Shown here piece after piece: positions 37,401 to 51,930 of a stretch of DNA of 64,000 bases. The stretch's first letter is position 1, and each line of letters begins with the position of its first letter. The DNA comes from a virus (Duplodnaviria; Caudoviricetes). The stretch is taken from IMG/VR virus record IMGVR_UViG_3300013308_000020, positions 28,207-92,206 of that record, one strand, 5' to 3'. The translations under genes and the position numbers were made by a program. The notes below the pieces were generated by a model. The model had not been told where the DNA came from. It made no database searches and saw only the letters and a list, made by a program, of their open reading frames with translations.

Positions 37401-40035
37401 TACGTTTAATAGTATTATCATCTGCTTCAGGAATCTCTTCTTGAAGTTTCTCACGATTAGCTTTAAATGCTTCTTTCTGTGTTGCAAATCTAGTATAATC
37501 TTCTCCTCTAAGTCTAGCAAGTCTTGCAACTTGATCAGCATCAGGTTCTTCACCCATAGCTTCATCTGTAGCAATACTCTCTTCGATTTCATCTGCTTCT
37601 GCTTTAATATCAGATATATGTTCTTCCTTACTAGCAATAGCCTCGTCAATCATACGAGTTGCTTCTTTGCCAAGTTTAGGATTTTCAGCATTTATCTCTT
37701 CAAGAATATCATCTACATTCTCACCTGAATCTATACGAGAACGAATATTCTTTTCAAAAGCTTCACGCTCAACTTTATTCAGTTTGTATTTAAGACGTTC
37801 AGTAGCAAGTTGTTGTTTCTCATGTGCTTCATATTGAGGAACAGTACCTTCATCTAAATTAAATGCTTTTACAGGAGCAATTTTTTTCTTAGCTGCTTGT
37901 TCTCTTTCATATTCACGGTTTAAAAAGTCTTTAGCACCTTGTCTAGTATGAAGATCAAGTAATTGATTATGTAAATCTTCTCTAACTAATGAAGCATTAG
38001 TACGTTTCTCTTCAACAGCAGTTAACTTCTGAATATGCTCAAGATTCTTTTTAACTTTATCTTCAGTAATATTATTATTCTCTAAAGTCTCTTTATATTC
38101 ATTAAGAGTTTTTGCATACTTCTCTTCAAGAACTTTTTCATAAGCCTTGATATTAGAAGGTTTTTGTTCTTCAGGAATAGCATGATACTTATCTAGAGTG
38201 CTACGCATAGCATCTAGAGCAGCACGTTTAGTTAATGCTTGATTAAGTTGAGGATTAGCAATTAAAGTTGTTAATGCCTCATGCTCTTTTAAATAATTCT
38301 CAGCATCTAAGTTATTAGTTACATCTATATTCTCTAATCTAGAAGTTAGATGTTGTGCTCTATTAAATACAGCAGCTACATGTTCATCTCTTAATAAAGG
38401 ATTATTGTCATAGATTTTATCATATAACTCTTTTCCTTTTTTAGCTTTAGCCAATTCTCTTTGAGCCATTGCAGACCTTTCAGGGTCTTTAGCACTAGTT
38501 TGAGCAACATTATCTAATGCTTCAAAAAGAAAATTCTCTCTACCTTTAGAAAAGTATTTTGTATAGAGATTAGCTCTATACATAGCCTTTTCATCATTCA
38601 ACTGGGCTTCTGTCATTTTACTAACATCTTGCCTAGTATTATAAGCTGTATATTCATCCCCAGCTACTTTCATTACACCACCTGCACCGGACATTAAACC
38701 GCCTAAGATGAAGCCACTACGAGCAGCATTACGATAGTTAGCATCTTCTTCGTATCCTGCTTCTGTTTTACCAGTAGTAGCATATTCAATAGACTGTTTT
38801 CTATGACCTAAACTTTCTTTAAAGTTATCATAGAAAGAGTTATCATCTTTATATTTACCTGCAAGATATTGTTGAGTAACTGAGAACTGGTCAGTCTCTT
38901 CCATTTGCTCTAATAGAGCAGTAAGACCTACGCCACCCATAGTTTTAGCAGCACGACCAATACGAGTACCAGTACCTAATTCTTCAAATGCAGTTAACGC
39001 TTTACCTACTTTACCAAATACAGAAGCAGCTTTACCTGCTTTAGCAATACTGGAAAGAGTTCTCCACGGAGTTGCCATTACAAGAACTTCGGCAGCATCA
39101 GAAAGACTAAGGTTATTATTTTGTTCTACTACATCTTTAAGACCTTCGTGAGCCTTAATCTGAATATCAAGTTTCTCTTGTTCAGATATAGGATTACCTC
39201 CATTCTTTTCTGTTGCTACTGCAATATCTTGTTGAACCTTTTGCTCATAAGCATCATTAGCTTCAGCTTGAGATTCATTCTGTCTCATTTGGTAAATACC
39301 ATATAGACCCGCAGCAGTTTCAGTAGCACCAAGACCTGCCATAACCCAAGGTAATTCAGGAATATCTGCACCACCTGTAGCAGCTACAGAAGTTAAAGTT
39401 TTCTGAACAATCTTATTAATTATCTGAGGACCAAATGTAGTAAGCATTTGAGTACCAATTTCAGAAGCAGAACCACCTAATTCTTTAGGCATTTCATATT
39501 TCATATAATCATGGAAGTTAGTATTTTCTTCCATCATAGCTTGCTCTGATTTTATCTCATAACGTTTAGTTACAGGACGTGCAGCAATATCAGTATCTTT
39601 TTCAGCTATATCTTTATGAATAGCATTATATTCAGGATCTTCTTGAATATTATTTAATTCATCTTGCTGCATTTGAATCTTTCTATCAGCTTCTTCTTGA
39701 GTCATATAGCCTTTAGCTACCTTATCTTGAAGTGCTAGAATTTCTCTTTTTGCAGTTTGTTGTCGAAGCTCAAAAGGTTTTAGTCTATAACCGTAAGTAG
39801 ATTTCTTAATTTCATCAATACCATTAACAAAAGAATTCCATCTATCATCTTCTCCTGCACCAGACTCTTCCATCATTTCAGGAGCATCTGTTTTATGAGG
39901 ATCAGAATAACCTTGACCTCCATAAGTAGCAGCTGATTCAGTAAGTGCTTCTATCATTCTAGTACCTGAACTAGGGGAAGTTGTTTCCCCTAGTCCTGTT
40001 GTACCTGCTTGCTTTAAAATATCTAGCCCTCTCAT
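25444..40035 (-). CDS. giant virion-packaged two-barrel RNA polymerase with SF1 helicase, HAD and zincin domains (4863 aa)
   Basis: GSDYDID (DYDID at 28438-28452; crAss-type DxDID catalytic loop) preceded by FRIP, DAQG, KPVY and SAFKIG; GFAGTGKT/DEA/GDPNQ/YTATSRA; DVDDT; HEAFH. Confidence 0.9.
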   Translation of the reverse strand: MRGLDILKQAGTTGLGETTSPSSGTRMIEALTESAATYGGQGYSDPHKTDAPEMMEESGAGEDDRWNSFVNGIDEIKKSTYGYRLKPFELRQQTAKREILALQDKVAKGYMTQEEADRKIQMQQDELNNIQEDPEYNAIHKDIAEKDTDIAARPVTKRYEIKSEQAMMEENTNFHDYMKYEMPKELGGSASEIGTQMLTTFGPQIINKIVQKTLTSVAATGGADIPELPWVMAGLGATETAAGLYGIYQMRQNESQAEANDAYEQKVQQDIAVATEKNGGNPISEQEKLDIQIKAHEGLKDVVEQNNNLSLSDAAEVLVMATPWRTLSSIAKAGKAASVFGKVGKALTAFEELGTGTRIGRAAKTMGGVGLTALLEQMEETDQFSVTQQYLAGKYKDDNSFYDNFKESLGHRKQSIEYATTGKTEAGYEEDANYRNAARSGFILGGLMSGAGGVMKVAGDEYTAYNTRQDVSKMTEAQLNDEKAMYRANLYTKYFSKGRENFLFEALDNVAQTSAKDPERSAMAQRELAKAKKGKELYDKIYDNNPLLRDEHVAAVFNRAQHLTSRLENIDVTNNLDAENYLKEHEALTTLIANPQLNQALTKRAALDAMRSTLDKYHAIPEEQKPSNIKAYEKVLEEKYAKTLNEYKETLENNNITEDKVKKNLEHIQKLTAVEEKRTNASLVREDLHNQLLDLHTRQGAKDFLNREYEREQAAKKKIAPVKAFNLDEGTVPQYEAHEKQQLATERLKYKLNKVEREAFEKNIRSRIDSGENVDDILEEINAENPKLGKEATRMIDEAIASKEEHISDIKAEADEIEESIATDEAMGEEPDADQVARLARLRGEDYTRFATQKEAFKANREKLQEEIPEADDNTIKRRIKNTFLKGSEYIQDKFNKNPHYNDIASVKREVKRAKHLKKIYEDRVAPEMKASEAFQDFEDTMDKHIETLENIETEVTKRLEDRDARDNRIVDNEAVLALNQLGLNPDGTVVEGKEELNAISKSIIGDADYNRVMADAKGKLTLVHANILIQTLKDNVTDRTRIDEAIADSKKAVMRKMLALPNIQKAFAKRGKVFNMYQLSPFRMVKDLINGIKDGLGPDAYDNQKTSSIYKFFKEGDVAEFINDLNNEDRSTSSVTKEEILAVVKLHEQYASLFDLEASLDSNFDLHTETVAEQKHEEELAADKNRKTPTPSNQQWVAMRQIVRFVQGKTSGKLFEDIAYIKGFAGTGKTNVTIRWVIKMLGLKTNQYYLAGHNVHSAETLSSSLNKSAINSVDKLIADLPTMDSNIKFIILDEAPGVTSANLRAISTALQTLNKGRKEKVKLLFMGDPNQKVANKVKSMLESPTELVGSENMTSISPLTIRFRSDIAAIVDVQDLFIDQDQDLTKSTISTKANTLNPSTLSSSIPLLGVNGSLRDFDKDVMATLLARKDDRSRTRAIIVGNDADVAKYEAMLKAAGIDNVQVMTDTDAQGRTINEVYTNIPFTNEYRSVQEYNTAMYTATSRATDYIYIGGFNVDNQLSDTIESNKEEKEKQNKDRSAKFIAQRKAELIKMDNLLPPKEAKTPDTEKATTVADDISDADYAEFVDNDNVSQEILNRIADKIINNEKLTDREQAIFGSKSKEINDIISIYHAQNATTADPAIDEPLEDEQAVQDDFKSEEDHVEVEYNPDNQDGMNEKEGNGQVTAAPLGVTQGTDIYTIGYPTGASVARKNKDGSYGPGVKPGDEVHYVKAKTSSGEYYIAILAPIEGQRGRYHEVGIVSKKELAKGVKDQDELYILLQDALNDDLGDTYPSSAFTTEDKSKGILKVSVLNPITSGRIAHTQKLAYKYGAPKPYDVLNTISRFVKGFFTNGENPDINKISENSKVRIYTTNGVGELVQSYKDKGKEIPFTPQAGVPYLVLDNLTRSAKFSKQQFIRLTPAFLDENKHSKYTRPIKKLIAAIEEMDYFMEGIEFGTPQYSEIIKADDEYLLKIIGSVLPKVTTENFNDFLDARDKLHDLVYSKELERFKDSKDIKQNHHVKDTSDNKMFDGNARVVKLIEKDNKVTSAQVKASDGTIMIVPIENLERVAVEKRVAGPAQIALNAIAKANANPNGYPIRVYKKIPNRNGIGFTVESFAKGLLIEQGETFSLEQLKELMQFDGEGKSSLLHVPLDIKHFQENSESEGTSLANVSDYINDTFEEVASSAISIERPSARKEREVTKPAETQAAPKPAAPKAKSAAEVKEEELDKFLPRGKKLLIDVDDTIIKTSEAVEKLDFEHSSASKKQAFFFEKGIYEEQVDNMLAKVELTELGKLLLKRLADGSIKKGDIHIVTSGKGRVKYLSDLLGIPVAQILTGQSDKNKMDRAHKYGDTIIDDNRYITDNTKGSIHYDYTKNEISAIDETYKAEKAKEEEAIVNENVLTPAEIKAKKKADLAKAKNKQKFGNKRELLKERGTSLGHLVKNPYDLVRKIIPSIRKEDVKVVSEAVMLKLTDGRAAWGHFREGIIYLLEGAEGVYHKVIRHEAFHRIFNNHLTEAEREKLIKTARRINPALEHITPVRVEEWLAEQYQNWTTKRGVVSLALINGFKKILNWLGLYKANFDNIESLFDAMDAGLLDKEGEVVEDATRNLVKIREDYLTTDHYRKARDLVTSGMSNRLNATEWDDEEGALKKVNLNKDGSNMKEATPMPFEEAINDLREEFKYYLDLYTESIAETVEEGEQPDEDDIFSKELYTILNDPRKSKDLLREIYPTLYLGNKEFTENLAETDEEIAQEIEDAQTDGSIYEDIIESDRIDNESAVKRGVKDFLATIVDEGGNIVNPRMGYIKLLEGFVGVTTKDLGKMIEQIGLNFGPTKTSNRKVAAIYDKVVDLITTANDNSDANGKPLPTFDKIGYDFQNDDVFIFKNAMDKTSSVSRGKMTSVAFMKSIAAALEKEGYVVNNERLNLQYKRAVAKEVLTQIRQSIGSQRKKNVMIAVRATSQWDSQKKREFYGVSYRYVSVREQGAKQNMRAAVETAFMTKGPTIPDALKQRFLETADDSTEATTKNIEDLIHYLGLPKPTIVKGEEFNIHASLKNLFQQVEAVGKEETKTDIDDDGNEGVEKKVTFTWDQFLKDSNQRIENLTDLLVKDSEDLRPVSYISGDGKKRYEWTNSSFGVDTLIHLTKGFVENRPDFMESAVFRRNILMGNGKTKREKAAHNKIHSFVDHDSIKEKDNKYKPTPYKNETSEQWLHRNINYTFLSLIGNAKASKGFRYIQQFYTISNKPAPYSAELNLKKSSEIKDVIYQAVMQEVERPYQDAQNYGKNYNKSYLAGLTEADITELRDLQEYEAMDISGKESQFNKLLETKIDKVFAAIEKKSERLVDKLIDAKFVLDYDVHKTQNKLLAHIDDKYKTADGKALLEEHTLPESLQSIKNKEYQLTKEQLLPLMDLWMKNNYMNGHFLNQLVMGDQAFYKNPADQIKRMSIAFAMGYSGMVNNEGFMKEKFTVAVAKKIMFGITEKQFKKHQAFYGKTGEAADAQGYHTPERGLDIRKGFGKEMALGAIMKPVYWALNKLGVPQGMKYSTIELSDALLYNKDGSERFPELVRLRQEMYDKKVDEYVFISAFKIGAPENLTGHGINEENVYTDAQGKKQKGIDPRSIVELDNSNWRIQLNPVHTLEGETAHPTQITYFVDIDGKNSKAANELFKLNAKLIRRGLNRMNQKLGGGNGNASKLRKFFLDSLGATDARLYDFMSAKDKDGNYLLSLNFPTVVNKVVTQIASTVSKATVQVKYDGTKLPLQADFGIKYIDESGKEKSSRRLKIRTETTVDGKKVQYAEVLMDNIYKDQFQMGDILFESALAFRIPSTELHSALPIKIVGFYDGKGTNVVIAPRELTILHGSDYDIDALFIMRRTPYLPKQGEKESKADYAQRANYKDLLMHGAIIGRKLDGEKIPKFIPRMEKEIKDLKERKKILDKKDDKEEIRRINKYINLLDGALDSAIKNEIVDKFLEVVTARRNEERMMTPISMDRLNDLEDNESVFSKLKAIGVTVEKEYDLNDPIDQMQIHQDNFSGTAIVGAIADLVRGLSYTLQSYKPDFDTRIKIIKRFKTPEKVEAFNKAMDIYNKAVTQSNKGEITYEEFRATAEAAFKEVEDEFNIVYDTPYVSETKTLAFDGKVYNKLTIKESGKKQKNGKPFNVSDTFDALINAALDNVKEQILPIIKLTNNTGKAYFGMLAVGMPLVATSKHFLTPVIKNLADARNMKLAQSESVKVLNALIAEKAGNITPEALDAVKDNVKLDEEALDNLIKKGNEEDFSIDKLTIEELIVQQKALTNFINGNSNGEDIGQVAKATKILKQFPVAQEEIQDLVDLFDDLKAAKDGLLGTINIMSLPHIKEAHHSLIKVSSIVNNQFYKHREELNKVAEAAIRHTGIRLDSNINKNKRMIRDEIMRMFLSGLSYVSDGITVNFNTSNATFKQFALNKKNEQIPLEGAKDLVGLNAFNQSFVEEVRAAQKANPANKFLSKIRIAPQLGVGKNMYQVEYNTTAAMEQAEIQDLQKAFNELKVDGKFTPFMHNFVKYAALNQGLSFGLSSYSLLLPAEVYADFDTAMNKFFNTLLSPTEARKPEIVEKRFKNLNEYFAAKFAKQFPSKLATNKEFVKKPGTIYPEQGFDILPNGERVNYELKYEYEKASETTQAVPDGDNKDEATVSLDEKQGEPTTQVADAAAPNDNDPTLTKEIKINGFPDFLSYYEKSYVRVPSKEGDPYVYYQYLAREEKGSKQGYEFDKNVMFFGYSLADAFKRDVKARSVPKANDQSEYSGDPKYNHFELEDTITLRTLNDSERLNAFDYTIKSITYTRGSKILEDREGADKVTYGLDNGRKVINFNREELSETDIVDLDELCK

Positions 40036-42236
40036 ACGTTATTCTCTTGTAGGTATAAAATGAATGCTTCTCTTTCTCTATCAGTCATAGAACTAAATCT
40101 ATCTACTTCTTTGATTTTTTCTTTTGCTGTATTTAATCTAGGAGTAAGGTCATTTTGTATATATAACTGTCTTTCTTTTTCGTCCTTAACTTTTGTGTTA
40201 AGTTCGTCCATATAATCTTTTACTTGTTTATCTAATTGCTTCTGTAATAAAACCTTAGTACGTTCTCTAAAAGGAACTTGTTTCGATTTAGGATTAGTAG
40301 GGTCTACAGGTACGGGAGCATTACCAATTAAACCTTTCATTTTATAACCTAGATTAGCCATATTACGTTGGTTTTCTGCATTTTGAGTTACATACTCAGC
40401 ATGATTTGCAGCAACATCAGTAGTACCCATTTTCTTCTTATCAAAATCTTCTGCAATAGTAGCAGATTCAGGTATCTTAGATACGAAGTTAACGTTATAA
40501 TATTTATTTTCTTCAATCTTATCATCAGGACCTAAACCAGTAATTAGATTATGAGTTTTAGCCCATTCCAAATCAGAAGCTGACATATCAGATAACTCAG
40601 TACCTTTCATTTTAGTAGTGAACTCTCCATACTTTTTACCGTTTACACGATAAGTATTTGTAGGATTTTTCATGTTAACATTGGCATCAACTACTTTACC
40701 ATTGAACTTTTTACCTATTGCTTCATAAGCTTTAAGATTATCTCCTTCAAAAGCAGTTTTATATTTTGCTGCAATATTAGCATGTTCAGCAGGTAGTTTC
40801 TTTAATTCTGCTTGAGCCTTTTCTAAATCTTTTTCGAGTAAAAATTTCTTTCTTTCTTTATCTTCACCGAATGTACCTTGCGCTATATCAACAGCTTTAC
40901 CTATAACTGGGAATGCAGTACCAAGTGTTTTTGATATTGCAGAAGGTTCTTCTAAATTTAAGAGTTTCTCTTTAATAGTATTAACATCACTTTCTTTCTT
41001 ATAGTATTCTTTAGCTATCTTAACTTGTTCTTCATTAAATCCTGCAGCTTCAGGAACAAAAGTACTACCCATTGTACCTATTTCCATAGGAACTCTCATA
41101 GCATCATATTTATTCTTAGTTTCAGGATCTTCTACAGTTACTTTAGGGAAGTGTATACCTGAGAAAGTTTCATCATTACTAACAGTACCATAGTTACCAT
41201 TCTCATCTGTTAGACTTGCAGCTCTATCCCATAATGCATGAGGAGCTAAAGCAACTGCTTCTTTCTTAGCTATTTTCTCTGCTTTCTCTTTAACAGTAGC
41301 AGCTTTAGCTAATTTCTTATCCTCTTCTATAGCATCTGCTGCAATTTTTTGTCTTTGAAGTTCAAGAGCTTGTCTATGATTAATAGCATCTCTTTGTAAA
41401 TCAAACGCTTGTTGATCTTCTCTATTCTCACGTTGTACAGCAGGAGCATTAACTTGATAGTTAACATCTTCTTTTGTAAATGTTTGTGCTTTACCTACGT
41501 TAAACAAATAATTAGAAATATAATCATCTGCTTCACCTTCACCCATACCTTTAATCTTAGTAAGTTTGCGTTTCATTTGGTCGCCCTCCGGACTATTCAT
41601 AAAACGCATAATAGAACCTTCTAAGTTATCTTTAACTCTTTGGTCAGATATACCAGTGATAGAACCACTTTGTAAGAAGTCTCTGATATTAGCAGGAGTT
41701 AAACCTAAATTTCTAGTACTAGCTATAAGTTTACTTACCTCTTGTGCTCTAGTATCGTAGTCTAATTCTTTCTCATTTTGAGCAACAAATCTTCTAGCTT
41801 TACCATCTGCTCCAACAGTTTTCCAACCTTCAGCAGGATTAAAGTCAAGAACACTATGACCGGCAGCTTGCATAGCTTGTCTAGTTTTCTCAGCTTCTTT
41901 AATAGCAGTCATATTCTCTTTAGCCATATTTAAATTTTGGTCAGCAGACCAATCTCTAACAGCTAACCCTATACGTGGAGTAGCATAAGCATAATCACCA
42001 CTAGATGCAATAGCATCTCTTTGTTGTTTAAGTCTACCTAATGCTGCATCCTTAATATCTCTATCACCATCTGCGACTTGAGTATTATTAGCCATAATAT
42101 CTAAAGCAGACATAGCGGCATAATTTTCATCATGCCGCTTCTGAACTGCTCCGAGACTATTAGCCAATATATCGAGCTTAGGGTCGACATACATCGACAT
42201 AGGCTCATTATATATTTGTTGACCGAAGTATCCCAT
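40032..42236 (-). CDS. virion cargo/ejection protein (734 aa, helical)
   Basis: Lies between the 1670-aa cargo gene and the vRNAP gene with ATGA coupling; coiled-coil-rich. Confidence 0.65.
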   Translation of the reverse strand: MGYFGQQIYNEPMSMYVDPKLDILANSLGAVQKRHDENYAAMSALDIMANNTQVADGDRDIKDAALGRLKQQRDAIASSGDYAYATPRIGLAVRDWSADQNLNMAKENMTAIKEAEKTRQAMQAAGHSVLDFNPAEGWKTVGADGKARRFVAQNEKELDYDTRAQEVSKLIASTRNLGLTPANIRDFLQSGSITGISDQRVKDNLEGSIMRFMNSPEGDQMKRKLTKIKGMGEGEADDYISNYLFNVGKAQTFTKEDVNYQVNAPAVQRENREDQQAFDLQRDAINHRQALELQRQKIAADAIEEDKKLAKAATVKEKAEKIAKKEAVALAPHALWDRAASLTDENGNYGTVSNDETFSGIHFPKVTVEDPETKNKYDAMRVPMEIGTMGSTFVPEAAGFNEEQVKIAKEYYKKESDVNTIKEKLLNLEEPSAISKTLGTAFPVIGKAVDIAQGTFGEDKERKKFLLEKDLEKAQAELKKLPAEHANIAAKYKTAFEGDNLKAYEAIGKKFNGKVVDANVNMKNPTNTYRVNGKKYGEFTTKMKGTELSDMSASDLEWAKTHNLITGLGPDDKIEENKYYNVNFVSKIPESATIAEDFDKKKMGTTDVAANHAEYVTQNAENQRNMANLGYKMKGLIGNAPVPVDPTNPKSKQVPFRERTKVLLQKQLDKQVKDYMDELNTKVKDEKERQLYIQNDLTPRLNTAKEKIKEVDRFSSMTDREREAFILYLQENNV

Positions 42237-42243
42237 CTTTTAT

Positions 42244-45200
42244 TTATTTTAAACTTGCGTAGTATTTCTCTAAGTCTTTGAGTGCAGCACTATTAGGAGT
42301 ATTAACTCTCATTTGATCTATTTTAGATTTTAGTCCTTGAGGGTCATTAGCATACATATCTTTAATTGCTTGCAATTGATATCCATAATCAGCACTATTA
42401 GGATTTGCCATAGCAATTTGTTTAATGCTTTCTAAATCTCTAGCATCCATTTTAGCATCTCTAGCAGAAGTATATTGGTCTAAGGCAAAGTTTCTAGCAT
42501 TACCTACAATATCTTCCTGAATACCTGCTCTACGTTTAGTATCTTCTACATCGTAAGCATATCTCTTATCATTATTGCGAGAGTTGATACCTGAATTTAC
42601 TAAAATTTCTTTATTTTTCAACTCATTTTCTATATTATTTTTCTGAGCATATAAAGCATTTTGATTATCAAGAGAAGAAGCGTAAAGCTGTTGCATATTA
42701 GAATTAGCTGCACCACCTTGAACTGTATTCTGTCTAATATTGGTAGCTGATGCATCTCTTGCATTTCTAGCTGCCTGCAATTGTGGATTGATATCGAATG
42801 TAGTATTCATTCTAACAGCAGGGTCAAGATAAGGTTTAGCAATTTGAGGAGTATTAGCTGTCATAATTCCACTAGCTAAGTTGTCAACATATTGCCAAGG
42901 AATACCATTACCACCTTTCATAGCATTTTTAGTTGCTTCACCTTCAGGGATAGGTAGTTTTTGAAGTTCAGGAGCAGCAAGTTTATTAAAAGGAGCACTC
43001 GTTATTCCCAAACTAGCAGGTCTAGTTTCTAACTTTTGAATAGCATTAGGGTCTTGATAATTATTATCAACATAGAATTGAGTACCTGTTTGCTTATCCA
43101 TTACTGTTGGTTCAATATATGGATTAACTACACCAGTAGAACTTGTACGACCAGGTGCTACATATTCACCTGTACCTGCACCAAAAGCTCTACCTCTAGT
43201 AGCAGCATTATATTCACCTCTTCTATTTACAATATTAGTAGGACGTATACTTCTAGGGTCAGTACTCCAACCACCTTTAGCAGGAAGAGGATTAAATGAT
43301 GCCCCAGGAGCTTTACCATATTGATATCCCATTGGATATGCGAATGGTTGAGGTTGAGTTAACTTCATACCATTATATAACTTAGGAAGTCTACCACCAT
43401 TAGCCATTGCAGGCATAGAGCTATAAATAGAAGGAGGTAGAGCCAATTGCTTTTTCATTTCTTGTTCATTGAATAGTTGGTCTAATTTCATATCCATTCG
43501 TTCAGTCATTCTATGACCAGTATTACTGATAGCTTCATTTGTACTAGGAATCTTAGCTTCAAACTTAGCCTTTTGTTTTCCTATCTCTTCTGCTTCTTTA
43601 GCATAAGTTTTCTTATTAGCAGTTTTCATTCTATCAGAGAATACTCTTTCACCACCTGCACCTGCAACTCCACCTTCTGCATGAGAAGGAGCTTGGTCAG
43701 GAACTTTAGTCATATCAGAAGCAACTTGTTGTTGTTGTCCATCTTCAAGCATTGGTTGTTGACCCTGAATCATTTCACCACCTTCAACTTCATATTCAGG
43801 TTCTTGTGGCATTTGACCTCCATAAGGATAAGCATAAAGCATACCTCCATCACCATGTTTCTTCTTTCTACCTTTATGTTTCCATTTAGCAGCATTCCTA
43901 GCAAAGTTAGCCATCTGACGTACATGAGGGTCTTTAGAATGTAAAGCTTCTTCTGTAGTCTTTCCTGTACGTTTTTTATAAGCAGTGAACTTACCTCTAT
44001 TTTCTTTTTTAATATGTATCTTACCTCCTTTACCATATTCAGGAAGGTCTCCTCCCCAAGCATAAGAACCTGATACACTAGTACCATGTTTAGGTTTACC
44101 TAAATTAATCTTAACAGGAATACCTGAACCTTTTTTAGTAGAAGCAAGATTACCCATTTGCCCATATATTGCTGCATAAGGGTTAGTTAATTGATCAGTT
44201 CTATTCTGCATTCTTTTTATAAGACCTTCTTCTTGTTTTCCTGCAAAATCAAATCTATCAGATATTATAGCATCATCTGTAGGTTTACCTTTTTTAATAC
44301 TAGTTTCTCCTAAAGTAGTTTGCATTCTATGAGTAGGGTCAACTAATGCATGAACAAAGGTTGGTATATCATGTGGGTCAACTCCTTCTGAAGATGGACC
44401 ATAATCAGCATATTCAGCACCAAAATATTTACCTTTATTATCTGGTTCATCTCCAGCTCTAACAGTAGCATTTCTATGAACTCTTCTCATTACATTTAAT
44501 TCTTCCGGAGTTAAATCCTTTTCGGTTAAAGGAGTAGGAGTTCCTCTAGTTAAGAAATTATCACCAGTAAATCTCTTCATTGCATTACCTGTAACATCTT
44601 GAGCAAGCATTGCAGCATTAATAGGAAGTACTGCTCTAGTTGCTTTAGTAACACCTTGATTAATAAGATTACCAAATTCATCTAAAGTACCACCATCAGC
44701 TAATTTTTTAGTTTTTAAATATGCAATAGGATCTTTATCTGCTATCTTTTTAATATTATCATAATTATTTAATCCTATTTCTCCAAGAGTTGCTCCAACT
44801 AAATGAGGATTCTTTGCCGCAGAAAGAACTTTTCCTGCTGTAGAAGATCCTTTAGCTAAATAAATAGTATTAGGTTTTCCTACAAAATTTTCACCTCCTA
44901 CTATACCTGCAAATCCACTTAATCCTGCACCTAAAGCATCTCTTTTAGCATCACCATATTCTCCTCTATACGAATCTAATAAAGTTTGACCTATACCAGT
45001 TCCCATACCTGCAACAGAAGCAACTTTACCTACACTTTGACCTATAGGTTCAGGAGAGAAATTACCTAATTGACCATAAGAAGCTATTTGATCTGCTGTT
45101 TCTAAACCTTCTTTAAGTCCTTGAGTATCTTTTCTTCTTTGTTGATATTTATATCTTCTAGCAAGTTCATCTCTTAGAAATGCTTCTTCATTAGCTTTTT

Positions 45201-47256
45201 GATCTTTTACTAAACCTACAGGAATAACAGGAGCAACACCAGTAGATTCTGGAAGAACATCTCGATAAGGATTTCCGCCATCAACATATTGAGGTAAACT
45301 TCCTCCATATGCATATGCACCAGTTGTAGTAACTCCTTTAGTATTATAGTTACGAAGCGTTTGCTGAGAACCCATAGTAGCTTGGTCATTGAGATTATTC
45401 ATATATCTCTCTCTAGCTTTTGCTTCTTCTCTCTTAGCTTTTTCAGCTTGAAGTAAAGCAAGACCTCCGCCAACAACAGCACCAACAGCCATTCCAGGGA
45501 GTCCTCCAGCTGCACCCATAGATGCTCCACTTGCTATACCTGAAGCAACTCCTCCAAGTGTAGAAGGTTTACCATTCATACCATCAATCATATTGATGCC
45601 TTGAGATACACCTTGTAAACCTCCACTAAGTGCAGTAGTGCCTTTTTCACTCATATTGTTAACTCTTCGGTTAACATCTCCAACTCCTACAGCAACAGAT
45701 TTTCCTGCATTAATAAGTGCATTTCCAATACCTCCTCCTCCAGTTGCTCCAGCAGTAGTTTGACCAGTATTAAAAGTTTCCCATCCACTTAATCCTAATT
45801 CTTCATTAGGATTAGTAGGAGGATTATATCCACCTAAATCATATCTAGGAAGAGAACCTCCATAAGCATAACCAAATGTTTCTCTTGCTCCTCGTCTAAA
45901 TTCATCTCCTACACTATCAAGAAGAGGTCTTTTTGCAAACTTATTCTCAACCATTCTACTTATAGGTCTCGTTGCGAAAGCAGGTAAACCTTCACTTTCT
46001 TCTTCGGAAGTTCCTATAGTTTCTCCATTAGGAGTTAATATCTCAGCATTTTTATCAAATCTTCTTATTTCTCTATTTATATTAGTTCCTAATTCATTAG
46101 GATTTTGAGATAAAGGTCTATTAAAAGAAGAAGAAGGTTTAGTAAGGTTAGCTTGATATTCTTCACCTAATCTTCTAGCTTTTCTAGCCCAATAATCATC
46201 TTGTTCTATCTCCCCTGTTCTAGGATTTCTACCTGCCCAACTACGAGCATTTTCAGTAGCTATACCTTGTTCATCAGGTTCTCCAAAAGGTCTTGAACGA
46301 GAATAAGCATTTCTTTGTGCTCTATTTAATGTAGTTTTTTGAACAGGAGTGTTAAGAATTTCTCGTTCTTCGGAAGGCATTATTTCATTACCCTTTTTAT
46401 CATACTTAATGTCTTTCATCCAAGGGTCATTACCTACACCACCAGTAGTTACTGGTTTAGCAGGTTCAAAAGTAGTACTAGATACAAAAGGAGTTTCTGT
46501 TTTAGTAACTGTCTTAGTTGGAGTAGTTACTTTCTTAGTAGTAACTACAGGTTGATTAGCAAGTTTCTTTAAAGGAGCAGAAACATATTTACCATTCTTT
46601 TCTACAACTCTAGGAAACTCTTCTCCACTTCTATTTGTACTTAAAGTTGCATTCTTTCTTTTACCTAAAGTATAAAAATCCTTTGCTGATTCTTCACCAT
46701 TTTTATAACTTATACCCCCAGGACGTTTATTACCATATAATACATTTTCAAATCCACTTGGCTTACTTTCCTGATTACCAAGAGTCATAGTACCTTTAGG
46801 TTCATCTTCCCATTTAGGCATATTAACTTTATTAGTCCTAGTTGGTTGTAATTCAGGAAGTTTAGGTTTAGGAGTTGTACTTGGTGTAATTGGTTTTGGC
46901 TTTATGCCGGTTGTATCTATACTAGCTTGAAATGCAGAATCTGCTTTAGCTCCTATATTTACTTTGCCTACTGTAGTATCTCCTTTACTTACAGTAGATA
47001 CTTTAGCATTAGGAGTACCTGTAACTGTTGCTTTATAACCAGTATTAGGATTAACTCCAGTTATATCTTTTAGTCTTTTACCTACTATATCAGCAGCATA
47101 TGTTCTAGGACCATCTTTTACTGCATATTTTAAACCATCTGGAGTAGTATAAGTTTTTTGCTTATTTTTTAAAGCATCTGTATATGCTTTATCCATAGCT
47201 TGTGCTTCAAAAAGAGAAGCTGTAGCTAACTTTCTTTTATATTGGTTTTGTGCCAT
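42244..47256 (-). CDS. large virion cargo protein with repeated Y-x-x-G-G motifs and glycine zipper (1670 aa)
   Basis: Follows the tail-stabilisation gene. Contains a Gly-zipper GGVASGIASGASMGAAGGLPGMAVGAVVGGGLALL, a basic IHIKKENRGKF module, an EVEGGE..HAEGGV..VFSD module and ten GG motifs. Confidence 0.75.
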   Translation of the reverse strand: MAQNQYKRKLATASLFEAQAMDKAYTDALKNKQKTYTTPDGLKYAVKDGPRTYAADIVGKRLKDITGVNPNTGYKATVTGTPNAKVSTVSKGDTTVGKVNIGAKADSAFQASIDTTGIKPKPITPSTTPKPKLPELQPTRTNKVNMPKWEDEPKGTMTLGNQESKPSGFENVLYGNKRPGGISYKNGEESAKDFYTLGKRKNATLSTNRSGEEFPRVVEKNGKYVSAPLKKLANQPVVTTKKVTTPTKTVTKTETPFVSSTTFEPAKPVTTGGVGNDPWMKDIKYDKKGNEIMPSEEREILNTPVQKTTLNRAQRNAYSRSRPFGEPDEQGIATENARSWAGRNPRTGEIEQDDYWARKARRLGEEYQANLTKPSSSFNRPLSQNPNELGTNINREIRRFDKNAEILTPNGETIGTSEEESEGLPAFATRPISRMVENKFAKRPLLDSVGDEFRRGARETFGYAYGGSLPRYDLGGYNPPTNPNEELGLSGWETFNTGQTTAGATGGGGIGNALINAGKSVAVGVGDVNRRVNNMSEKGTTALSGGLQGVSQGINMIDGMNGKPSTLGGVASGIASGASMGAAGGLPGMAVGAVVGGGLALLQAEKAKREEAKARERYMNNLNDQATMGSQQTLRNYNTKGVTTTGAYAYGGSLPQYVDGGNPYRDVLPESTGVAPVIPVGLVKDQKANEEAFLRDELARRYKYQQRRKDTQGLKEGLETADQIASYGQLGNFSPEPIGQSVGKVASVAGMGTGIGQTLLDSYRGEYGDAKRDALGAGLSGFAGIVGGENFVGKPNTIYLAKGSSTAGKVLSAAKNPHLVGATLGEIGLNNYDNIKKIADKDPIAYLKTKKLADGGTLDEFGNLINQGVTKATRAVLPINAAMLAQDVTGNAMKRFTGDNFLTRGTPTPLTEKDLTPEELNVMRRVHRNATVRAGDEPDNKGKYFGAEYADYGPSSEGVDPHDIPTFVHALVDPTHRMQTTLGETSIKKGKPTDDAIISDRFDFAGKQEEGLIKRMQNRTDQLTNPYAAIYGQMGNLASTKKGSGIPVKINLGKPKHGTSVSGSYAWGGDLPEYGKGGKIHIKKENRGKFTAYKKRTGKTTEEALHSKDPHVRQMANFARNAAKWKHKGRKKKHGDGGMLYAYPYGGQMPQEPEYEVEGGEMIQGQQPMLEDGQQQQVASDMTKVPDQAPSHAEGGVAGAGGERVFSDRMKTANKKTYAKEAEEIGKQKAKFEAKIPSTNEAISNTGHRMTERMDMKLDQLFNEQEMKKQLALPPSIYSSMPAMANGGRLPKLYNGMKLTQPQPFAYPMGYQYGKAPGASFNPLPAKGGWSTDPRSIRPTNIVNRRGEYNAATRGRAFGAGTGEYVAPGRTSSTGVVNPYIEPTVMDKQTGTQFYVDNNYQDPNAIQKLETRPASLGITSAPFNKLAAPELQKLPIPEGEATKNAMKGGNGIPWQYVDNLASGIMTANTPQIAKPYLDPAVRMNTTFDINPQLQAARNARDASATNIRQNTVQGGAANSNMQQLYASSLDNQNALYAQKNNIENELKNKEILVNSGINSRNNDKRYAYDVEDTKRRAGIQEDIVGNARNFALDQYTSARDAKMDARDLESIKQIAMANPNSADYGYQLQAIKDMYANDPQGLKSKIDQMRVNTPNSAALKDLEKYYASLK
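43393..45870 (-). repeat. protein-level tandem motif (Y/L/M/H)-x-x-G-G, mostly as pairs 9 aa apart
   Basis: YAYGGSLPRYDLGG 45829-45870; YAYGGSLPQYVDGG 45274-45315; LADGG 44689-44703; YAWGGDLPEYGKGG 44023-44064; HGDGGMLYAYPYGG 43816-43857; MANGG 43393-43407. Confidence 0.85.
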
Positions 47257-48605
47257 TATCTGTAACTTACTTTATCGTTAATACTAAAATCTGATAATAC
47301 TATTTCTGTAAATCTTGACCCATTATTAAAGATTAATCTTGAACAGATATAATCACTAATGAACCTAGCCTGTTTATAAAAAGATTTACTAGAAGAAATA
47401 GCAGTAGGTATTACATTACCTTTAGAATCTAGAAATATAGAATTAGGGTCTTTTATTAAATCCCTAAAATCATTAAATCTCCAAACACCTTCGGCATTAC
47501 GAGTAGTCTTATTAGGTATTATTGTTACTTCTCCACTACATTGATTATGATTATAAATCATAATAGTATCAAATGTAATATGTTCAATAATTATACCTGA
47601 TATTTTAACTTGAGTTTTCCAGCTAACAGAATGATAAGATTTAGTAAGAATATTAGGTGCAACAAACTCTATTTGAGATTTAAATGGAATTGGAACTGGA
47701 ACTTCAAGTGAAGGTTGATTATAAAACCAACCTTTTTTATCAAGTTGATTATGAATATAAATCTTAGTCTCTTTAAAAGACATTAAGAAGTTAGCAGTAC
47801 AAAAAATAGCGTCAGGTTTATAATCATGAAAACAAGACCAAGATTTATTCTCAAGAGAATATGATACAGTAAAAGAAGTATCTTCCATTACAACTTCTTC
47901 AAACTTAATATCAGTATCACATTTTAAGTTAGCATCTGCATCTGCAACAGCAAGTGCATATGCATTGGCACTTGCATTAGCAGGAGAAGATAAACTAAAA
48001 GCTCCTTTTGTTGATGTATAACTACCTGTTTGATTAGCACCACAATATTTAGTATAACTTCTTACTCTATAATAAATAGTTAGATTCTCACTATACCCTG
48101 TAACATCTGTAATAGTTACAGTAAAGTTTAAAGAATTTAAAGAAGGATTTACAACTGATACTATACTATAATGTTTAGAACTTATAATAGTTTTATTTAC
48201 AGGAATAGCATTACCACTTGAATCTTTATAAGTATCACTTAATATATTTTGTAAACTAGTAATATCAAGTCTAATAGTATTAGGAGTAGTTAAATTAGGA
48301 GTAATTGTAATATCTACTGGAGGTACACAATCAATAGTAATATTTGAAATTACTTCAAAATCCTGATTATTACTACCATATGCAATTACTCTATATAATC
48401 CGTCAGGTAAATTATTTACAGTAACACTAGATTGGTATAAAACATATGCACTAGTACCTAGAACTACACCATCTTCATCTGTAATTTGAACACTTACACT
48501 TTCATCTTTTTCAGGATCATTTGAAGTAACCGTAGCTGTTATAGTTCCTTTGTAATTTGAACAACTCTTAGTTGTCCTTAAAGTTACATTATTTATACCT
48601 GTCAT
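47256..48605 (-). CDS. tail stabilisation (muzzle) protein, C-terminal part, preceded by Ig-like domains
   Basis: FTVSYS...WSCFHDYKP and RNAEGVWRFN..R..ISDY motifs typical of the stabiliser C-terminus; likely start ATG 48605 (TAA-T-ATG after the upstream stop). Confidence 0.7.
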   Translation of the reverse strand: MTGINNVTLRTTKSCSNYKGTITATVTSNDPEKDESVSVQITDEDGVVLGTSAYVLYQSSVTVNNLPDGLYRVIAYGSNNQDFEVISNITIDCVPPVDITITPNLTTPNTIRLDITSLQNILSDTYKDSSGNAIPVNKTIISSKHYSIVSVVNPSLNSLNFTVTITDVTGYSENLTIYYRVRSYTKYCGANQTGSYTSTKGAFSLSSPANASANAYALAVADADANLKCDTDIKFEEVVMEDTSFTVSYSLENKSWSCFHDYKPDAIFCTANFLMSFKETKIYIHNQLDKKGWFYNQPSLEVPVPIPFKSQIEFVAPNILTKSYHSVSWKTQVKISGIIIEHITFDTIMIYNHNQCSGEVTIIPNKTTRNAEGVWRFNDFRDLIKDPNSIFLDSKGNVIPTAISSSKSFYKQARFISDYICSRLIFNNGSRFTEIVLSDFSINDKVSYR

Positions 48606-48606
48606 A

Positions 48607-51600
48607 TTATTCGCTTGGTAAAATTTCTTCCGGTGGTATAGGAACATCTACAAAAGGAGATTCCGCTACAACTCTCATATATTTTCCATCTTTATACACA
48701 ACATCTCCTTCTTTCAGACTACGTATAAATTCTACATCTTCTGTATAATGTCCTTTATAATTTAAAAGGTCATTAGGTGGGAGAAGTAATTGCTTCTTTA
48801 CAAAGATAATTCTATTATTAACTTCATCATAAGAAGAGCAGAGTCCATTAAAAGTAAAAGGATTGTTTGTAGTAAGACTTCCAATCATAGGTAGGTTATC
48901 TCTAAACCATTTGTACATACCTTCATTGGAAATTTCTTTCATGGCATTATCCATAATGAATACTTTACCTTGCTTTTCATCAGCAGTAAAATATCCACCT
49001 TTAAACTTACCACAAACGAATTTAGAATTACAACCTACATATCCATCTTTAGAATCTAGAATCTCTTTAGGAGGACGAGCAAACACATCTCCTGTTCCTA
49101 CTTGAACTGTAGATATATCTGTTTGTAATTGTTCATTGCTCCTAGTTATATAAAGACCGTATTCATGTTGAATAAGTATATCCCCATTGATAGCTTCAAG
49201 ATGAACTATACCACCTCTATCCTTAACTGTTTCATAGTAATCATTAGCACTGAATTGTCTCCAAGAAAGATTCTTAGATTCTCTTCCTATTCTACCTGAA
49301 CGTAAAATACGATTAAAATGTCTAGTTAAATCTTGTTCCTCAAACTCCATATGCTGTACAGCATTAAGAGTATTTACTGTTGTATAATCTTTATGGAATC
49401 TAATAGGATATTCTGTTTGATTAGATGTTCCATTATTAACCATTGGATAATCATACTTAGGATAGAAATCTCCATATTGTAATTCAGGAGGATTTGCAGT
49501 TTCTACAAAGAATATAATCTTATGACGAATACCATCATGTTGATCATTATCATTATAAGTATTCCAAGTAGGAGCAGTAAGAATATTTCCTTGTCTACCA
49601 TAATAACCATCTCCACCAAATATAGGAATAGTAGCAAGTGCGGCATTATCAATTCTATATCCAGTAGATACTAATTCTTGTTCATCATATCTAAGATAAG
49701 CATTATCTTTAACTAAACATAAATCAGTAAGATATGTTTCACAAAACATTGCTCCTCCTTTTAAAGTACCATAACTTATATTAGCAGGAAGGTTTAAATT
49801 CATAGAAGGATTTCCTCTACCTTGAGTATCTGCTTGAAATTTAGCATAAAATACTTCTTCACACCATCTATTACTTACATTAAGACCATCTATATTTCCA
49901 ATAATTGTATTAAATGGAAGGTATCTTTGATCATATATTCCTCTAACTCTGTATTCTTCTGCGGCAGGAATAATAGAAACAGTTCCTCCTGAAGGTGTCC
50001 AATTTGTAAAATCTGTAAAGGCAAAAATAGAACCATCTTCACTACCATCTTCATTACTTTTACAAGTAGGATCTACATCAGTATCTCCATGAAGCTTCCA
50101 GTTATTATAAATATAATTAGGCATTACACTTGTCTTATCAACAAGCATATCAAAAGGATGAACTCTAATAGTTTTATAATCTAAAAATTGAGTTTTAACT
50201 TGAGTACTACTTGTACCTGAGGTTACACTCCAATTACCTGCATTAGAAGTAATATTATTATTTTGAGGATCAATTCCTTGTGCACCAAAGAACATTAATG
50301 CTCTACCTGCAAGAGTACAATTATCTCCTTTACGTTTAGCATAAAATATTTCTATATTTTGTATTTGGTCTCTTATCTCTTGTGGAAAATTTATATTAGA
50401 TATTTTTAAACCTAATATATTAGCATTATGAGTATCTTGAGTAAAGTAACCATCTCTACCAATAGTAGGAGTTTTATGGTGTCTTACTTTTTGACCACCT
50501 AGATTATCAATAACGTTTCCATTAGCATCTAATATATCCCAATCAGGAGTACTAGGATAAACTTCATCTTTGTTTTCCCAATATCCCATAGTGCCAATAG
50601 GAAAACCTGATGTATCTCTAGTTTGAAAATACTTAACATTTGTAGCTACAACATTATCTTCTTTTAAATATCCTGCTCCACTAGTATTCATTATATTAGA
50701 AACTAATTCGTTTTCTTTGAAAGTACTTGTAAAAGGAGCACCTACTATATTTCTAGCAGCACGACCAGGAATATGAAAGGCATATTGATAATTACCAGTT
50801 GTCATAGTAACTACTGCATATAAAGCATATACTTCATTATGCATAAAGCATCTTTTAAGATGAAAAGAACTACCATCTTTATAAGTACCTTCGGGACTAG
50901 CCATAGATGATACAGATATTTCATCTCTTACATATTCAACCTTCCAATTATTTATATACTTTTGAATATTAATTATAGGCTTAGTTCCTACATCAGCAAG
51001 ATATAAAATATCACTATCAATTAATACAGAAGAAGCAGTTGTATAACTAGGTCTATCTACAACAACTTCACTCATAGATATACTTTGTACTGGTTCTGTA
51101 CCTGTATATACTGCTGTTGCTGTTGCACCATGAATGTTTATAGTAGTAAATGATTCAGCATAATACTGACTTCCCTCTTTACGAACTACTATAAGCTTTA
51201 TTTTCTTATAACGAGTATCAATATTTTCAATAAATAGCTCTACTGAATTAGGAGTTTTAGTTCCAATAGGATCTCCACTTATTTGAGTATAAGTAGAGTT
51301 CATATTTATAATAAGAACTGGATTTCCTATTGGAAAAGTATCAGTTATATATCCACTATAATCTTCATATTGTCCTGTAAAGAAAATAGTACCTGTAGTA
51401 ATATCTCCTCCATCAGGTCTTACCTTTAATGCATTAATTTTAGGTATTACTGCATTAGGAAATACAAGAGTATTATTTAATAAAGTAGGGTCAACTAAAG
51501 TATAATCGGGATTAAGTTTAAAAGGAAGATTATCTATATTAAGAACTCTTACAGGATTATAATTATCTGTAAATATAATCTCAACATCATTATAAATATT

Positions 51601-51930
51601 ACGATGATGGCGTCCACTAATAGGATGTTCTATACTAAAACCAAATCCTGCATCTCTAACAATAACGCTATAAACTCCTTTATTACTTATTCTACCTATT
51701 TCAGAAGTAGTAGTTACTGAAAAGATAATTACCTCATCATCATATAATGTAATAAAACCAATTGGGGTAGCCCCTTCAGTATAATTACGAGCATAAAAGT
51801 CGAAACCATCTTCATTCTTAACAGCTTTTCTATCTTTGGTTATTACAATATTTCTAGTATTCGTTGTCCAAGTTCCTTCTGATGAATTCGCTCTATCCAA
51901 GCTATCATCATACATACCTTTTAACTCCAT
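48607..51930 (-). CDS. tail stabilisation (muzzle) protein, N-terminal part (1107 aa)
   Basis: KGM.D..., NEDGF, FTDNYNPVRVLN, VRHHKTP, SWRQFSANDY, EISNEGMYKWF, YDEVNNRIIF; follows the tail tubular gene. Confidence 0.82.
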   Translation of the reverse strand: MELKGMYDDSLDRANSSEGTWTTNTRNIVITKDRKAVKNEDGFDFYARNYTEGATPIGFITLYDDEVIIFSVTTTSEIGRISNKGVYSVIVRDAGFGFSIEHPISGRHHRNIYNDVEIIFTDNYNPVRVLNIDNLPFKLNPDYTLVDPTLLNNTLVFPNAVIPKINALKVRPDGGDITTGTIFFTGQYEDYSGYITDTFPIGNPVLIINMNSTYTQISGDPIGTKTPNSVELFIENIDTRYKKIKLIVVRKEGSQYYAESFTTINIHGATATAVYTGTEPVQSISMSEVVVDRPSYTTASSVLIDSDILYLADVGTKPIINIQKYINNWKVEYVRDEISVSSMASPEGTYKDGSSFHLKRCFMHNEVYALYAVVTMTTGNYQYAFHIPGRAARNIVGAPFTSTFKENELVSNIMNTSGAGYLKEDNVVATNVKYFQTRDTSGFPIGTMGYWENKDEVYPSTPDWDILDANGNVIDNLGGQKVRHHKTPTIGRDGYFTQDTHNANILGLKISNINFPQEIRDQIQNIEIFYAKRKGDNCTLAGRALMFFGAQGIDPQNNNITSNAGNWSVTSGTSSTQVKTQFLDYKTIRVHPFDMLVDKTSVMPNYIYNNWKLHGDTDVDPTCKSNEDGSEDGSIFAFTDFTNWTPSGGTVSIIPAAEEYRVRGIYDQRYLPFNTIIGNIDGLNVSNRWCEEVFYAKFQADTQGRGNPSMNLNLPANISYGTLKGGAMFCETYLTDLCLVKDNAYLRYDEQELVSTGYRIDNAALATIPIFGGDGYYGRQGNILTAPTWNTYNDNDQHDGIRHKIIFFVETANPPELQYGDFYPKYDYPMVNNGTSNQTEYPIRFHKDYTTVNTLNAVQHMEFEEQDLTRHFNRILRSGRIGRESKNLSWRQFSANDYYETVKDRGGIVHLEAINGDILIQHEYGLYITRSNEQLQTDISTVQVGTGDVFARPPKEILDSKDGYVGCNSKFVCGKFKGGYFTADEKQGKVFIMDNAMKEISNEGMYKWFRDNLPMIGSLTTNNPFTFNGLCSSYDEVNNRIIFVKKQLLLPPNDLLNYKGHYTEDVEFIRSLKEGDVVYKDGKYMRVVAESPFVDVPIPPEEILPSE

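Follow-up and report, generated by a model that had tools for sequence, protein, structure and literature searches.

A recurrent Gly-Gly peptide in a 1670-residue phage protein

The gene examined here lies on the minus strand at 42244..47256 of a 64,000-nucleotide stretch of viral DNA (Caudoviricetes; positions 28,207 to 92,206 of IMG/VR record IMGVR_UViG_3300013308_000020), which as a whole we call the window. Its open reading frame (ORF) encodes a protein of 1670 residues, P0001, and occupies the slot of a C1-type cargo gene, after ring protein 1 and a split muzzle gene and before a 734-residue gene and a giant polymerase gene. P0001 is homologous to gp45 of the phage PhicrAss001. It is made of seven blocks (A to G) that are set apart by a short peptide ending in Gly-Gly. 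This peptide is conserved, stands at module junctions and N-termini in relatives, and marks the borders at which modules have been shuffled.

Translation of 42244-47256 (minus strand) places the motif at six sites between residue 463 (45868-45870) and residue 1288 (43393-43395), exactly the residues given in a preliminary description of this DNA. The first, M1, is YAYGGSLPRYDLGG (residues 463-476, 45829..45870, minus strand, as are all features of the gene), with A464, G466, G467, L469, G475 and G476 invariant in five orthologues. In M2, YAYGGSLPQYVDGG (residues 648-661, 45274..45315), Y648-G652 are invariant, and in the orthologue P0003 block D follows immediately on this motif. The shorter M3, LADGG (residues 852-856, 44689..44703), comes from the translation, and block D homology begins beside its Gly-Gly. 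M4, YAWGGDLPEYGKGG (residues 1065-1078, 44023..44064), is predicted to be disordered, with a predicted local distance difference test (pLDDT) score below 50. M5, HGDGGMLYAYPYGG (residues 1134-1147, 43816..43857), is predicted to be disordered when alone and aligns with the AFGG of gp45 at 425-428. Lastly, M6, MANGG (residues 1284-1288, 43393..43407), has M1284, G1287, G1288 and L1290 invariant; its counterpart is gp45 FAYGG 559-563, which falls just past the modelled domain of that protein. In an AlphaFold model of residues 1060-1300, the stretches with M4, M5 and M6 all score below 50 and lie around the folded blocks E and F.

The pattern [YFWLM]xxGG occurs nine times in P0001 against a mean of 3.0 in shuffled sequences, and at least nine occurrences were reached in 41 of 10,000 shuffles. 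The spacing of four Gly-Gly pairs by exactly 9 residues, to which the preliminary description had drawn attention, was found again here and arose in none of 20,000 shuffles. The protein as a whole is rich in glycine (10.8%), and its 27 Gly-Gly dipeptides are equalled or exceeded in 710 of 20,000 shuffles.

At the DNA level the copies are less alike. Three 14-residue copies have 9-11 residues in common, yet only about half of the codons are alike at identical residues, and synonymous codons differ between copies (including Ser TCT versus AGT). The varied codons imply that the repeat is kept at the protein level and that the peptide itself is selected. A DNA repeat search found a shared stretch of only about 19 nucleotides at 74-89% identity. 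A recent DNA duplication or a DNA-level signal was considered and rejected, since the search gave no more than the short stretch that the peptide itself accounts for.

Across the 92-kb genome the motif is concentrated in P0001. Where 1.6 matches would be expected, the 4863-residue fused polymerase has a single one, which is non-canonical; a motif scan of the 734-, 1424- and 463-residue proteins found none. Moreover, no N-terminal leader is common to P0001 and the other cargo genes of the genome. Self-BLAST of P0001 detects no similarity among the blocks between the motifs, which bears out the earlier claim that the motifs separate unrelated blocks.

Block A (residues 1-462, 45871..47256) comprises, by block-wise BLAST, a conserved N-terminus of about 60 residues followed by a variable region rich in Lys, Thr and Pro. 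Just the first ~60 residues align in orthologues (57-65% identity), plus 275-462 or 418-462 in some relatives. In its start, MAQNQYKRKLATAS, the leader MAANNKYKKRLATGG of the orthologue P0023 can be recognised in degenerate form: in the clade of P0001 the N-terminal Gly-Gly has decayed to Ala-Ser (LATGG in P0023, LATAS here), and the first 60 residues are still conserved. This conserved start may correspond to an unassigned 14-residue helix at the PhicrAss001 muzzle. Block B (residues 477-647, 45316..45828) is a glycine-zipper, membrane-type segment (20% Gly) followed by a basic helix; it is present in all relatives mapped and resembles gp45 120-200 by eye. In gp45, a transmembrane helix is predicted at 136-158 (PMC10172136). 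Block C (residues 662-851, 44704..45273) is a cassette unique to this phage: it is absent from all seven relatives mapped and has no relative among the long proteins searched.

Block D (residues 857-1064, 44065..44688) is conserved, being 48-70% identical in four orthologues, and carries a His-rich stretch. Within it, DPHDIPTFVHALVDPTHR has D960, P961, H969, A970, P974 and R977 invariant in five orthologues, and 5 of the 13 histidines of P0001 fall in this block. Block D matches no Pfam or phage-collection family, and in the protein Atlas it finds unnamed viral clusters only. Structure prediction of residues 645-1085 (blocks C and D) gave a mean pLDDT of 33, so there is no usable fold; conceivably, block D forms a metal site or acts as a small enzyme. 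Block E (residues 1079-1133, 43858..44022) is a small basic helical module (KIHIKKENRGKFT...WKHKGRKKK) that matches gp45 375-424 and is folded in the AlphaFold model (1080-1126, pLDDT 71-89). Block F (43408..43815) is a domain of the portal-binding type, with a BLASTP match to gp45 at E 1e-9; it is modelled as a folded unit, 1150-1279, at pLDDT 71-94. Block G (residues 1289-1670, 42247..43392) is a conserved, Asn/Gln-rich and mostly helical C-terminal part. It keeps the last place in every relative mapped, at 46-77% identity. Pfam and PHROG scans of the whole protein and of each block gave no match. P0001 has no cysteine and no HExxH.

Module exchange at the motif in relatives

Close relatives of 1238, 1941, 1294 and 1746 residues came from a search of 5.8 billion proteins, and relatives of 916, 1251 and 930 residues from a search of cluster representatives. 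Each block of P0001 was compared separately by BLAST with each of these seven (P0003-P0006, P0023, P0028 and P0032). Two of them, P0003 and P0023, are confirmed positional orthologues: their genes have the same neighbours as P0001, in the slot between the muzzle and polymerase genes.

Most block alignments begin no more than two residues from a Gly-Gly (left contexts ...FDIGG, ...YADGG, ...GKGG and ...LADGG), so that the motifs mark module borders, as the preliminary description had supposed. For example, the alignment of block D starts immediately past Gly-Gly in P0003 and P0004 and no more than two residues away in P0006; the distance in P0005 is 11 residues, counted from YANGG. Other cassettes stand in place of block C in P0004 and P0006, block E precedes block D in P0005 and P0006, and P0028 and P0032 are without block E. 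Counting P0001 itself there are eight architectures: A-B-C-D-E-F-G, a-B-D-E-F-G, a-B-X-D-E-F-X-G, A-B-E-D-F-G, A-B-X-E-X-D-F-G, leader-B-E-X-F-G, a-X-B-X-F-G and X-B-F-X-G. In all eight, B is ahead of F, and F and G come last. Cassettes C and X are lineage-specific, and the identity to a single orthologue varies widely from block to block (E 96-98%, D 48-70%, B 52-68%). The gene is thus strongly supported as an expandable cassette. The preliminary description had proposed to test whether blocks are gained or lost as units, and the idea came through: the seven relatives show loss, replacement and even reordering.

The same rule extends far beyond close relatives. A query of residues 1065-1290 against 1.84 billion cluster representatives returned 2639 clusters at E <= 0.001, and among the matches listed most cover block E only. 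We took motif statistics over 167 distant relatives. The motif occurs 1018 times in these against 225 expected, a 4.5-fold enrichment. It ends 0-3 residues before block E in 123 of 160 near-complete E modules (77%, against 5.8% for random positions), and 12 further E modules begin within five residues of the protein N-terminus. Block F is flanked by the motif upstream in 8 of 11 cases and downstream in 10 of 11. The distance from motif to motif peaks at 9 residues, with 47 cases against at most 15 at every other spacing up to 30. In addition, a basic leader ending in the motif (e.g. MKKLKKYQSGG) is found within the first 40 residues of 78 of the 167 proteins. The logo reads K at P6, Y/F/M at P5, A/K/Q at P4, then Gly-Gly, a variable P1', I/L/V at P2' (47%) and P/H at P3'. 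Protein C-termini fall at Gly-Gly in 7 of 167 proteins, against about 6 estimated from motif density, and so are not enriched.

Block E itself is found in N-terminal, middle or C-terminal position and is sometimes duplicated. In the Suoliviridae phage cr109_1 it is a stand-alone gene of 79 residues between the portal and capsid genes (L002:5950-6189). This gene is annotated as a 'transcriptional regulator' and has a 25-residue leader ending in KYKDGG. It also has one in-frame stop under translation table 11, so that this codon probably stands for an amino acid in cr109_1. In two contigs of other crAss-like phages (L041:5001-7449 and L042:5001-7134), C1 stands directly after the muzzle gene and begins with the E module (MSIHIKK... 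and MAIHIKKK...); by eye, two adjacent genes share the counterpart of block F, which is divided at a site without the Gly-Gly motif. C1 genes of this E-first kind are preceded by either the muzzle gene or an unrelated gene of 349 residues. Gene splits at the junction motif were sought in these E-first phages, and the one visible split is that inside block F.

The gp45 family and the genome setting

Residues 1077-1223 of P0001 align with gp45 373-509 in a pairwise BLASTP (E 1e-9; about 29% identity over 147 residues). A second route leads through gp060 of IAS virus, a Steigviridae phage, encoded next after the muzzle; it was found by tblastn and matches P0001 with E 1.6e-24. In turn, gp060 matches gp45 (7QOG chain M) with E 5.6e-77, its residues 666-875 corresponding to gp45 607-812. 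Gene order around gp45 and gp060 is that of the P0001 slot (muzzle, C1, then C2 and polymerase genes). From this homology and synteny, P0001 can be placed as an expanded C1 cargo protein. A VIA-align comparison of the E-F model with 48,161 representative chains ranked 7qog_M 425-552 first, at a modest Z of 6.5 (root-mean-square deviation 2.8 Å over 92 residues; next Z 5.4), and Foldseek of the same model against the PDB gave no match. The gp45 family model in Pfam, PF25725 (crAss_CARG1), does not match the whole of P0001, residues 1065-1290 at E up to 5, or the genome in six frames. When P0001 was searched directly against PDB sequences, no match came up; the link to gp45 is made by gp060 and by pairwise BLAST.

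The blocks correspond to gp45 as follows: B to ~120-200, E to 375-424, F to 425-552 and G to ~600-812. Structures of gp45 are available (PDB 7QOG, 7QOI, 7QOJ, 7QOL and 8CKB). The motif is present in gp45 as FDTGG 17-21, AYGG 207-210, FAEGG 260-264, AFGG 330-333, KDGG 371-374, AFGG 425-428 with TQGG 432-435, and FAYGG 559-563; gp060 likewise carries it. Both P0001 and gp45 are encoded in the slot after the muzzle gene, and both have a glycine-zipper segment followed by a basic helix, then a basic IHIK/IKIK module, a portal-bound domain and an Asn/Gln-rich C-terminus in the same order. They differ in length (1670 versus 842 residues), in the extra cassettes A, C and D of P0001, and in that P0001 escapes the gp45 Pfam model. 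To judge from its sequence, P0001 is a divergent, expanded C1-type cargo (ejection) protein of the gp45 family, which upholds the earlier naming of a crAss-type cargo protein through synteny, the gp45 match and the gp060 bridge. It is most likely packed into the particle and injected.

The virus record is 92,206 bp long with direct terminal repeats, and represents a complete crAss-like phage of about 92 kb. The minus strand from 21 to 64 kb of the window is a crAss-type virion block with the order ring protein 2 (a PF25702 match), ring protein 1, muzzle (two ORFs), the 1670-residue ORF, a 734-residue ORF, a 4863-residue helicase-polymerase fusion and a 1424-residue ORF. The capsid protein (PF23898) and portal genes lie within the first 28 kb of the genome. 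Tail ring protein 1 is at 51941..52651 on the minus strand (PF24228, E 9.9e-27). The muzzle gene, the upstream neighbour, spans 47256..51930 on the same strand as two ORFs of 1107 and 463 residues; their orthologues in contig L040 carry PF25731 (crAss_MUZ), and the 463-residue ORF has a weak crAss_MUZ_C match (E 0.15). The two ORFs overlap by 41 nucleotides, and an equivalent split occurs in L040 (1102 and 456 residues). As the split is common to the window and L040, it is no assembly error.

Downstream, 25444..42236 (minus strand) holds the 734-residue gene, in the C2 position, and the helicase-polymerase fusion, both without the motif. The fusion (25444-40035, minus strand) has an HExxH (HEAFH) at residue 2504, and the 1424-residue protein (21167-25441, minus strand) has another (HEYGH) at residue 154. 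These two are the sole protease-like signatures noticed in the genome and are not called by Pfam.

Uncut joint, docking tag or cleavage site

The reading that we favour, and whose chances we judge to be about evenly balanced, is that the motif is left uncut and serves a thread-like, modular ejection protein as a joint or docking tag. The conserved core would be block B (the glycine-zipper membrane segment), F (the portal-binding domain) and G (the C-terminal helical part), onto which the optional cassettes A, C, D and E would have been added. Neighbouring modules are linked by a short linear motif (consensus basic, [Y/F/M], [A/K/Q], x, G, G, x, [I/L/V]), in many cases present twice at a distance of 9 residues. 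When alone, this peptide is predicted to lie in a disordered linker; it would stay uncut in the particle and act as a flexible joint and docking peg. Such a bead-on-a-string chain could lie in store along portal, tail barrel and muzzle and leave with its N-terminus in front, after its N-terminal part has waited in the tail barrel, like that of gp45. Insertion into the membrane would fall to block B, and F and G would remain at the portal until last. The Gly-Gly joints may make the chain free enough to get through the channel, and the hydrophobic residues beside them may hold on the 12-fold inner surfaces. Since all cassettes are flanked by one neutral joint, a module could come in, drop out or change places without harm to its neighbours. 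Docking is a guess on our part; that cleavage is absent we infer from the genome and from gp45.

The preliminary description had proposed a polyprotein cut after Gly-Gly and had suggested a genome search for a C39, Ulp or prohead-type protease. The evidence does not support such a cut. Peptidase_C39, C48 (Ulp), C5 (adenain), S78 (HK97), S77 (T4) and ClpP were not detected in the 92,206-bp genome, where a very divergent enzyme could be missed, and a scan of the head and tail genes, including those between portal and capsid protein, found no protease family. The motif is missing from the 4863-residue fusion. Ubiquitin-type Gly-Gly peptidases avoid Pro after Gly-Gly, whereas in the 167 relatives Pro at P1' (4.3% against a background of 5.6%) is not avoided. 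Indirect evidence comes from the virion: clear density was reported for gp45 425-552 on the portal in the PhicrAss001 virion (Bayfield et al. 2023, PMC10172136). This chain spans AFGG 425-428 and TQGG 432-435 (AFGG-WLNTQGG), aligned with the YPYGG end of M5. As gp45 is modelled through both, the junction equivalent to residues 1134-1147 is continuous in 12 copies per virion. Other segment limits fit cut and uncut chains alike: the tail-barrel segment of gp45 (214-245) starts four residues past AYGG, and its portal-bound domain ends seven before FAYGG. The published mass-spectrometry peptides of gp45 (79-101, 181-190, 275-300 and 307-320) are ordinary tryptic ones away from the motifs, and the supplementary files of the PhicrAss001 papers contain no gp45 band size or peptide map. 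Of the two roles named in the preliminary description, protease site or loading tag, the former is disfavoured by the genome and gp45 evidence and the latter, as a loading or docking tag, fits the data.

Several points nevertheless weigh against an uncut joint. The published gp45 model speaks for one junction only, and the AFGG there has its aromatic residue at P3, not P5; cleavage at other motif copies is possible. Two zincin-like HExxH sites are present in neighbouring cargo proteins, and cutting of the motif by a host protease is also possible. Free reordering is at least as easily explained by modules that are released from each other. The basic N-terminal leader, too, with the constant dipeptide at its end, has the look of the cleavable targeting peptides of T4 or phiKZ.

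These points lead to the strongest competitor, a polyprotein in which a phage enzyme (e.g. one of the zincin-like domains of the neighbouring cargo proteins) or a host protease cuts after Gly-Gly, either within the procapsid or once ejection has taken place. This would free the membrane, basic, portal-binding and other modules and strip off N-terminal leaders, as T4 gp21 does with capsid-targeting peptides. We hold this to be possible, if rather doubtful. The motif stands exactly at module borders and at the ends of basic leaders, module order is free, and the linkers are predicted to be disordered and accessible. The HExxH sites of the 4863- and 1424-residue neighbours could supply the enzyme, fused crAss polymerase proteins are expected to be cleaved, with a zincin domain pointed to (bioRxiv 10.1101/2020.03.07.982082), and polyvalent proteins offer a parallel (PMC5512222). 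Separate fragments would also explain why parts of gp45 lie on both sides of the PhicrAss001 portal. On the other hand, a genome with terminal repeats has no detectable C39, C48, C5, S78, S77 or ClpP family, P0001 itself is without cysteine and HExxH, the fused polymerase is without the motif, gp45 425-552 is modelled through two Gly-Gly and Pro after Gly-Gly is tolerated. Cutting at paired sites 9 residues apart would moreover free a useless nonapeptide, and the clade of P0001 has lost the N-terminal Gly-Gly while keeping the leader. A variant that we consider unlikely is that the motif is a portable cargo code, by which flanked modules are loaded and then freed by an unrecognised protease after ejection or during maturation. 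If that were true, C1 would be a true polyprotein, and the presence of one gp45 on both sides of the portal would be explained.

A different account gives the motif no role in the particle: it would be a shared neutral linker that, with its DNA, allows cassette exchange by recombination between co-infecting phages, much as conserved junction motifs set off the variable toxin domains of CdiA or Rhs proteins. The coincidence of block borders with the motif, the block-to-block differences in identity to one orthologue (E 96-98%, D 48-70%, B 52-68%) and the lineage-specific cassettes C and X all suit it. It seems improbable all the same, given that the peptide is conserved with varied codons and a shared DNA stretch of ~19 nucleotides at 74-89%, that residues at P6, P5, P4 and P2' are selected in very distant relatives, that the motif also closes N-terminal leaders, where no cassette joins, and that the natural gene split in L041 and L042 is inside block F and not at the motif. 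Chance in a low-complexity, glycine-rich protein deserves practically no weight. Glycine content and the dipeptide count (at least 27 in 710 of 20,000 shuffles) are in its favour, but it is refuted by the spacing shuffles (four pairs at 9 in 0 of 20,000), by invariance in orthologues, by the 4.5-fold family enrichment with a defined logo and by the junction rule of the E modules.

P0001 and its motif have partial parallels in known systems. The polyvalent proteins of phages and conjugative elements also carry many unrelated modules in one virion-delivered chain of varying architecture (seven blocks in P0001, eight architectures in its family). They are defined by effector domains already known and, as a rule, contain a zincin-like peptidase that is presumed to process them (Iyer et al. 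2017, PMC5512222), whereas P0001 has no HExxH and no recognised Pfam or PHROG domain. That paper makes no mention of a glycine junction peptide or linkers, and Bayfield et al. 2023 (PMC10172136) makes none of the motif and module exchange.

Processing at Gly-Gly resembles the case of P0001 in the hydrophobic residue a few positions ahead of Gly-Gly and in its place at the borders of virion-protein units. Examples are the African swine fever virus (ASFV) polyproteins pp220 and pp62, cut by pS273R, the adenovirus protease with (M/I/L)XGG|X, Ulp and deubiquitinases, and C39 double-glycine leader peptidases. To our knowledge, all of these systems need a cysteine protease. The motif of P0001 differs in that the hydrophobic residue is at P5 instead of P4, P2' is a conserved hydrophobic and Pro is tolerated at P1'; moreover, the genome has no detectable cysteine protease, and one copy is uncut in PhicrAss001. 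A further parallel is offered by T4 IPIII with gp21 and the phiKZ inner-body proteins with gp175, where sites end in Glu and the prohead protease also trims the capsid protein. As in the P0001 family, packaged proteins there share a short N-terminal leader, and the larger internal proteins have internal copies of the site. In the P0001 genome, however, no prohead protease was found, and the P0001 leader has lost its Gly-Gly. Among polymorphic toxins, VENN in CdiA and PxxxxDPxGL in Rhs mark a single border before the C-terminal toxin. These too are short conserved peptides at the exchange point of variable cassettes, but the motif of the P0001 family recurs up to a dozen times per protein and also stands at N-termini.

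In the literature searched, which included the PhicrAss001 papers, we found no description of the junction peptide, its 9-residue pairing or the cassette exchange, in keeping with the earlier statement that no such system has been characterised in phages. New at the P0001 locus are relatives of one lineage that show cassette loss, replacement and reordering at the motif. So are the quantified family-wide junction rule and the loss of an N-terminal Gly-Gly from a retained leader.

Of all phages in the human gut, crassviruses are the most abundant. They load several megadaltons of protein and eject it again, and the junction peptide offers a way into how this is done; it predicts exact residues for virion mass spectrometry and sites to mutate. 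In uncultured genomes where Pfam sees nothing, the motif gives a rule for spotting cargo proteins and their cassettes. The reordering of modules in positional orthologues shows that the injected payload of crassviruses evolves fast.

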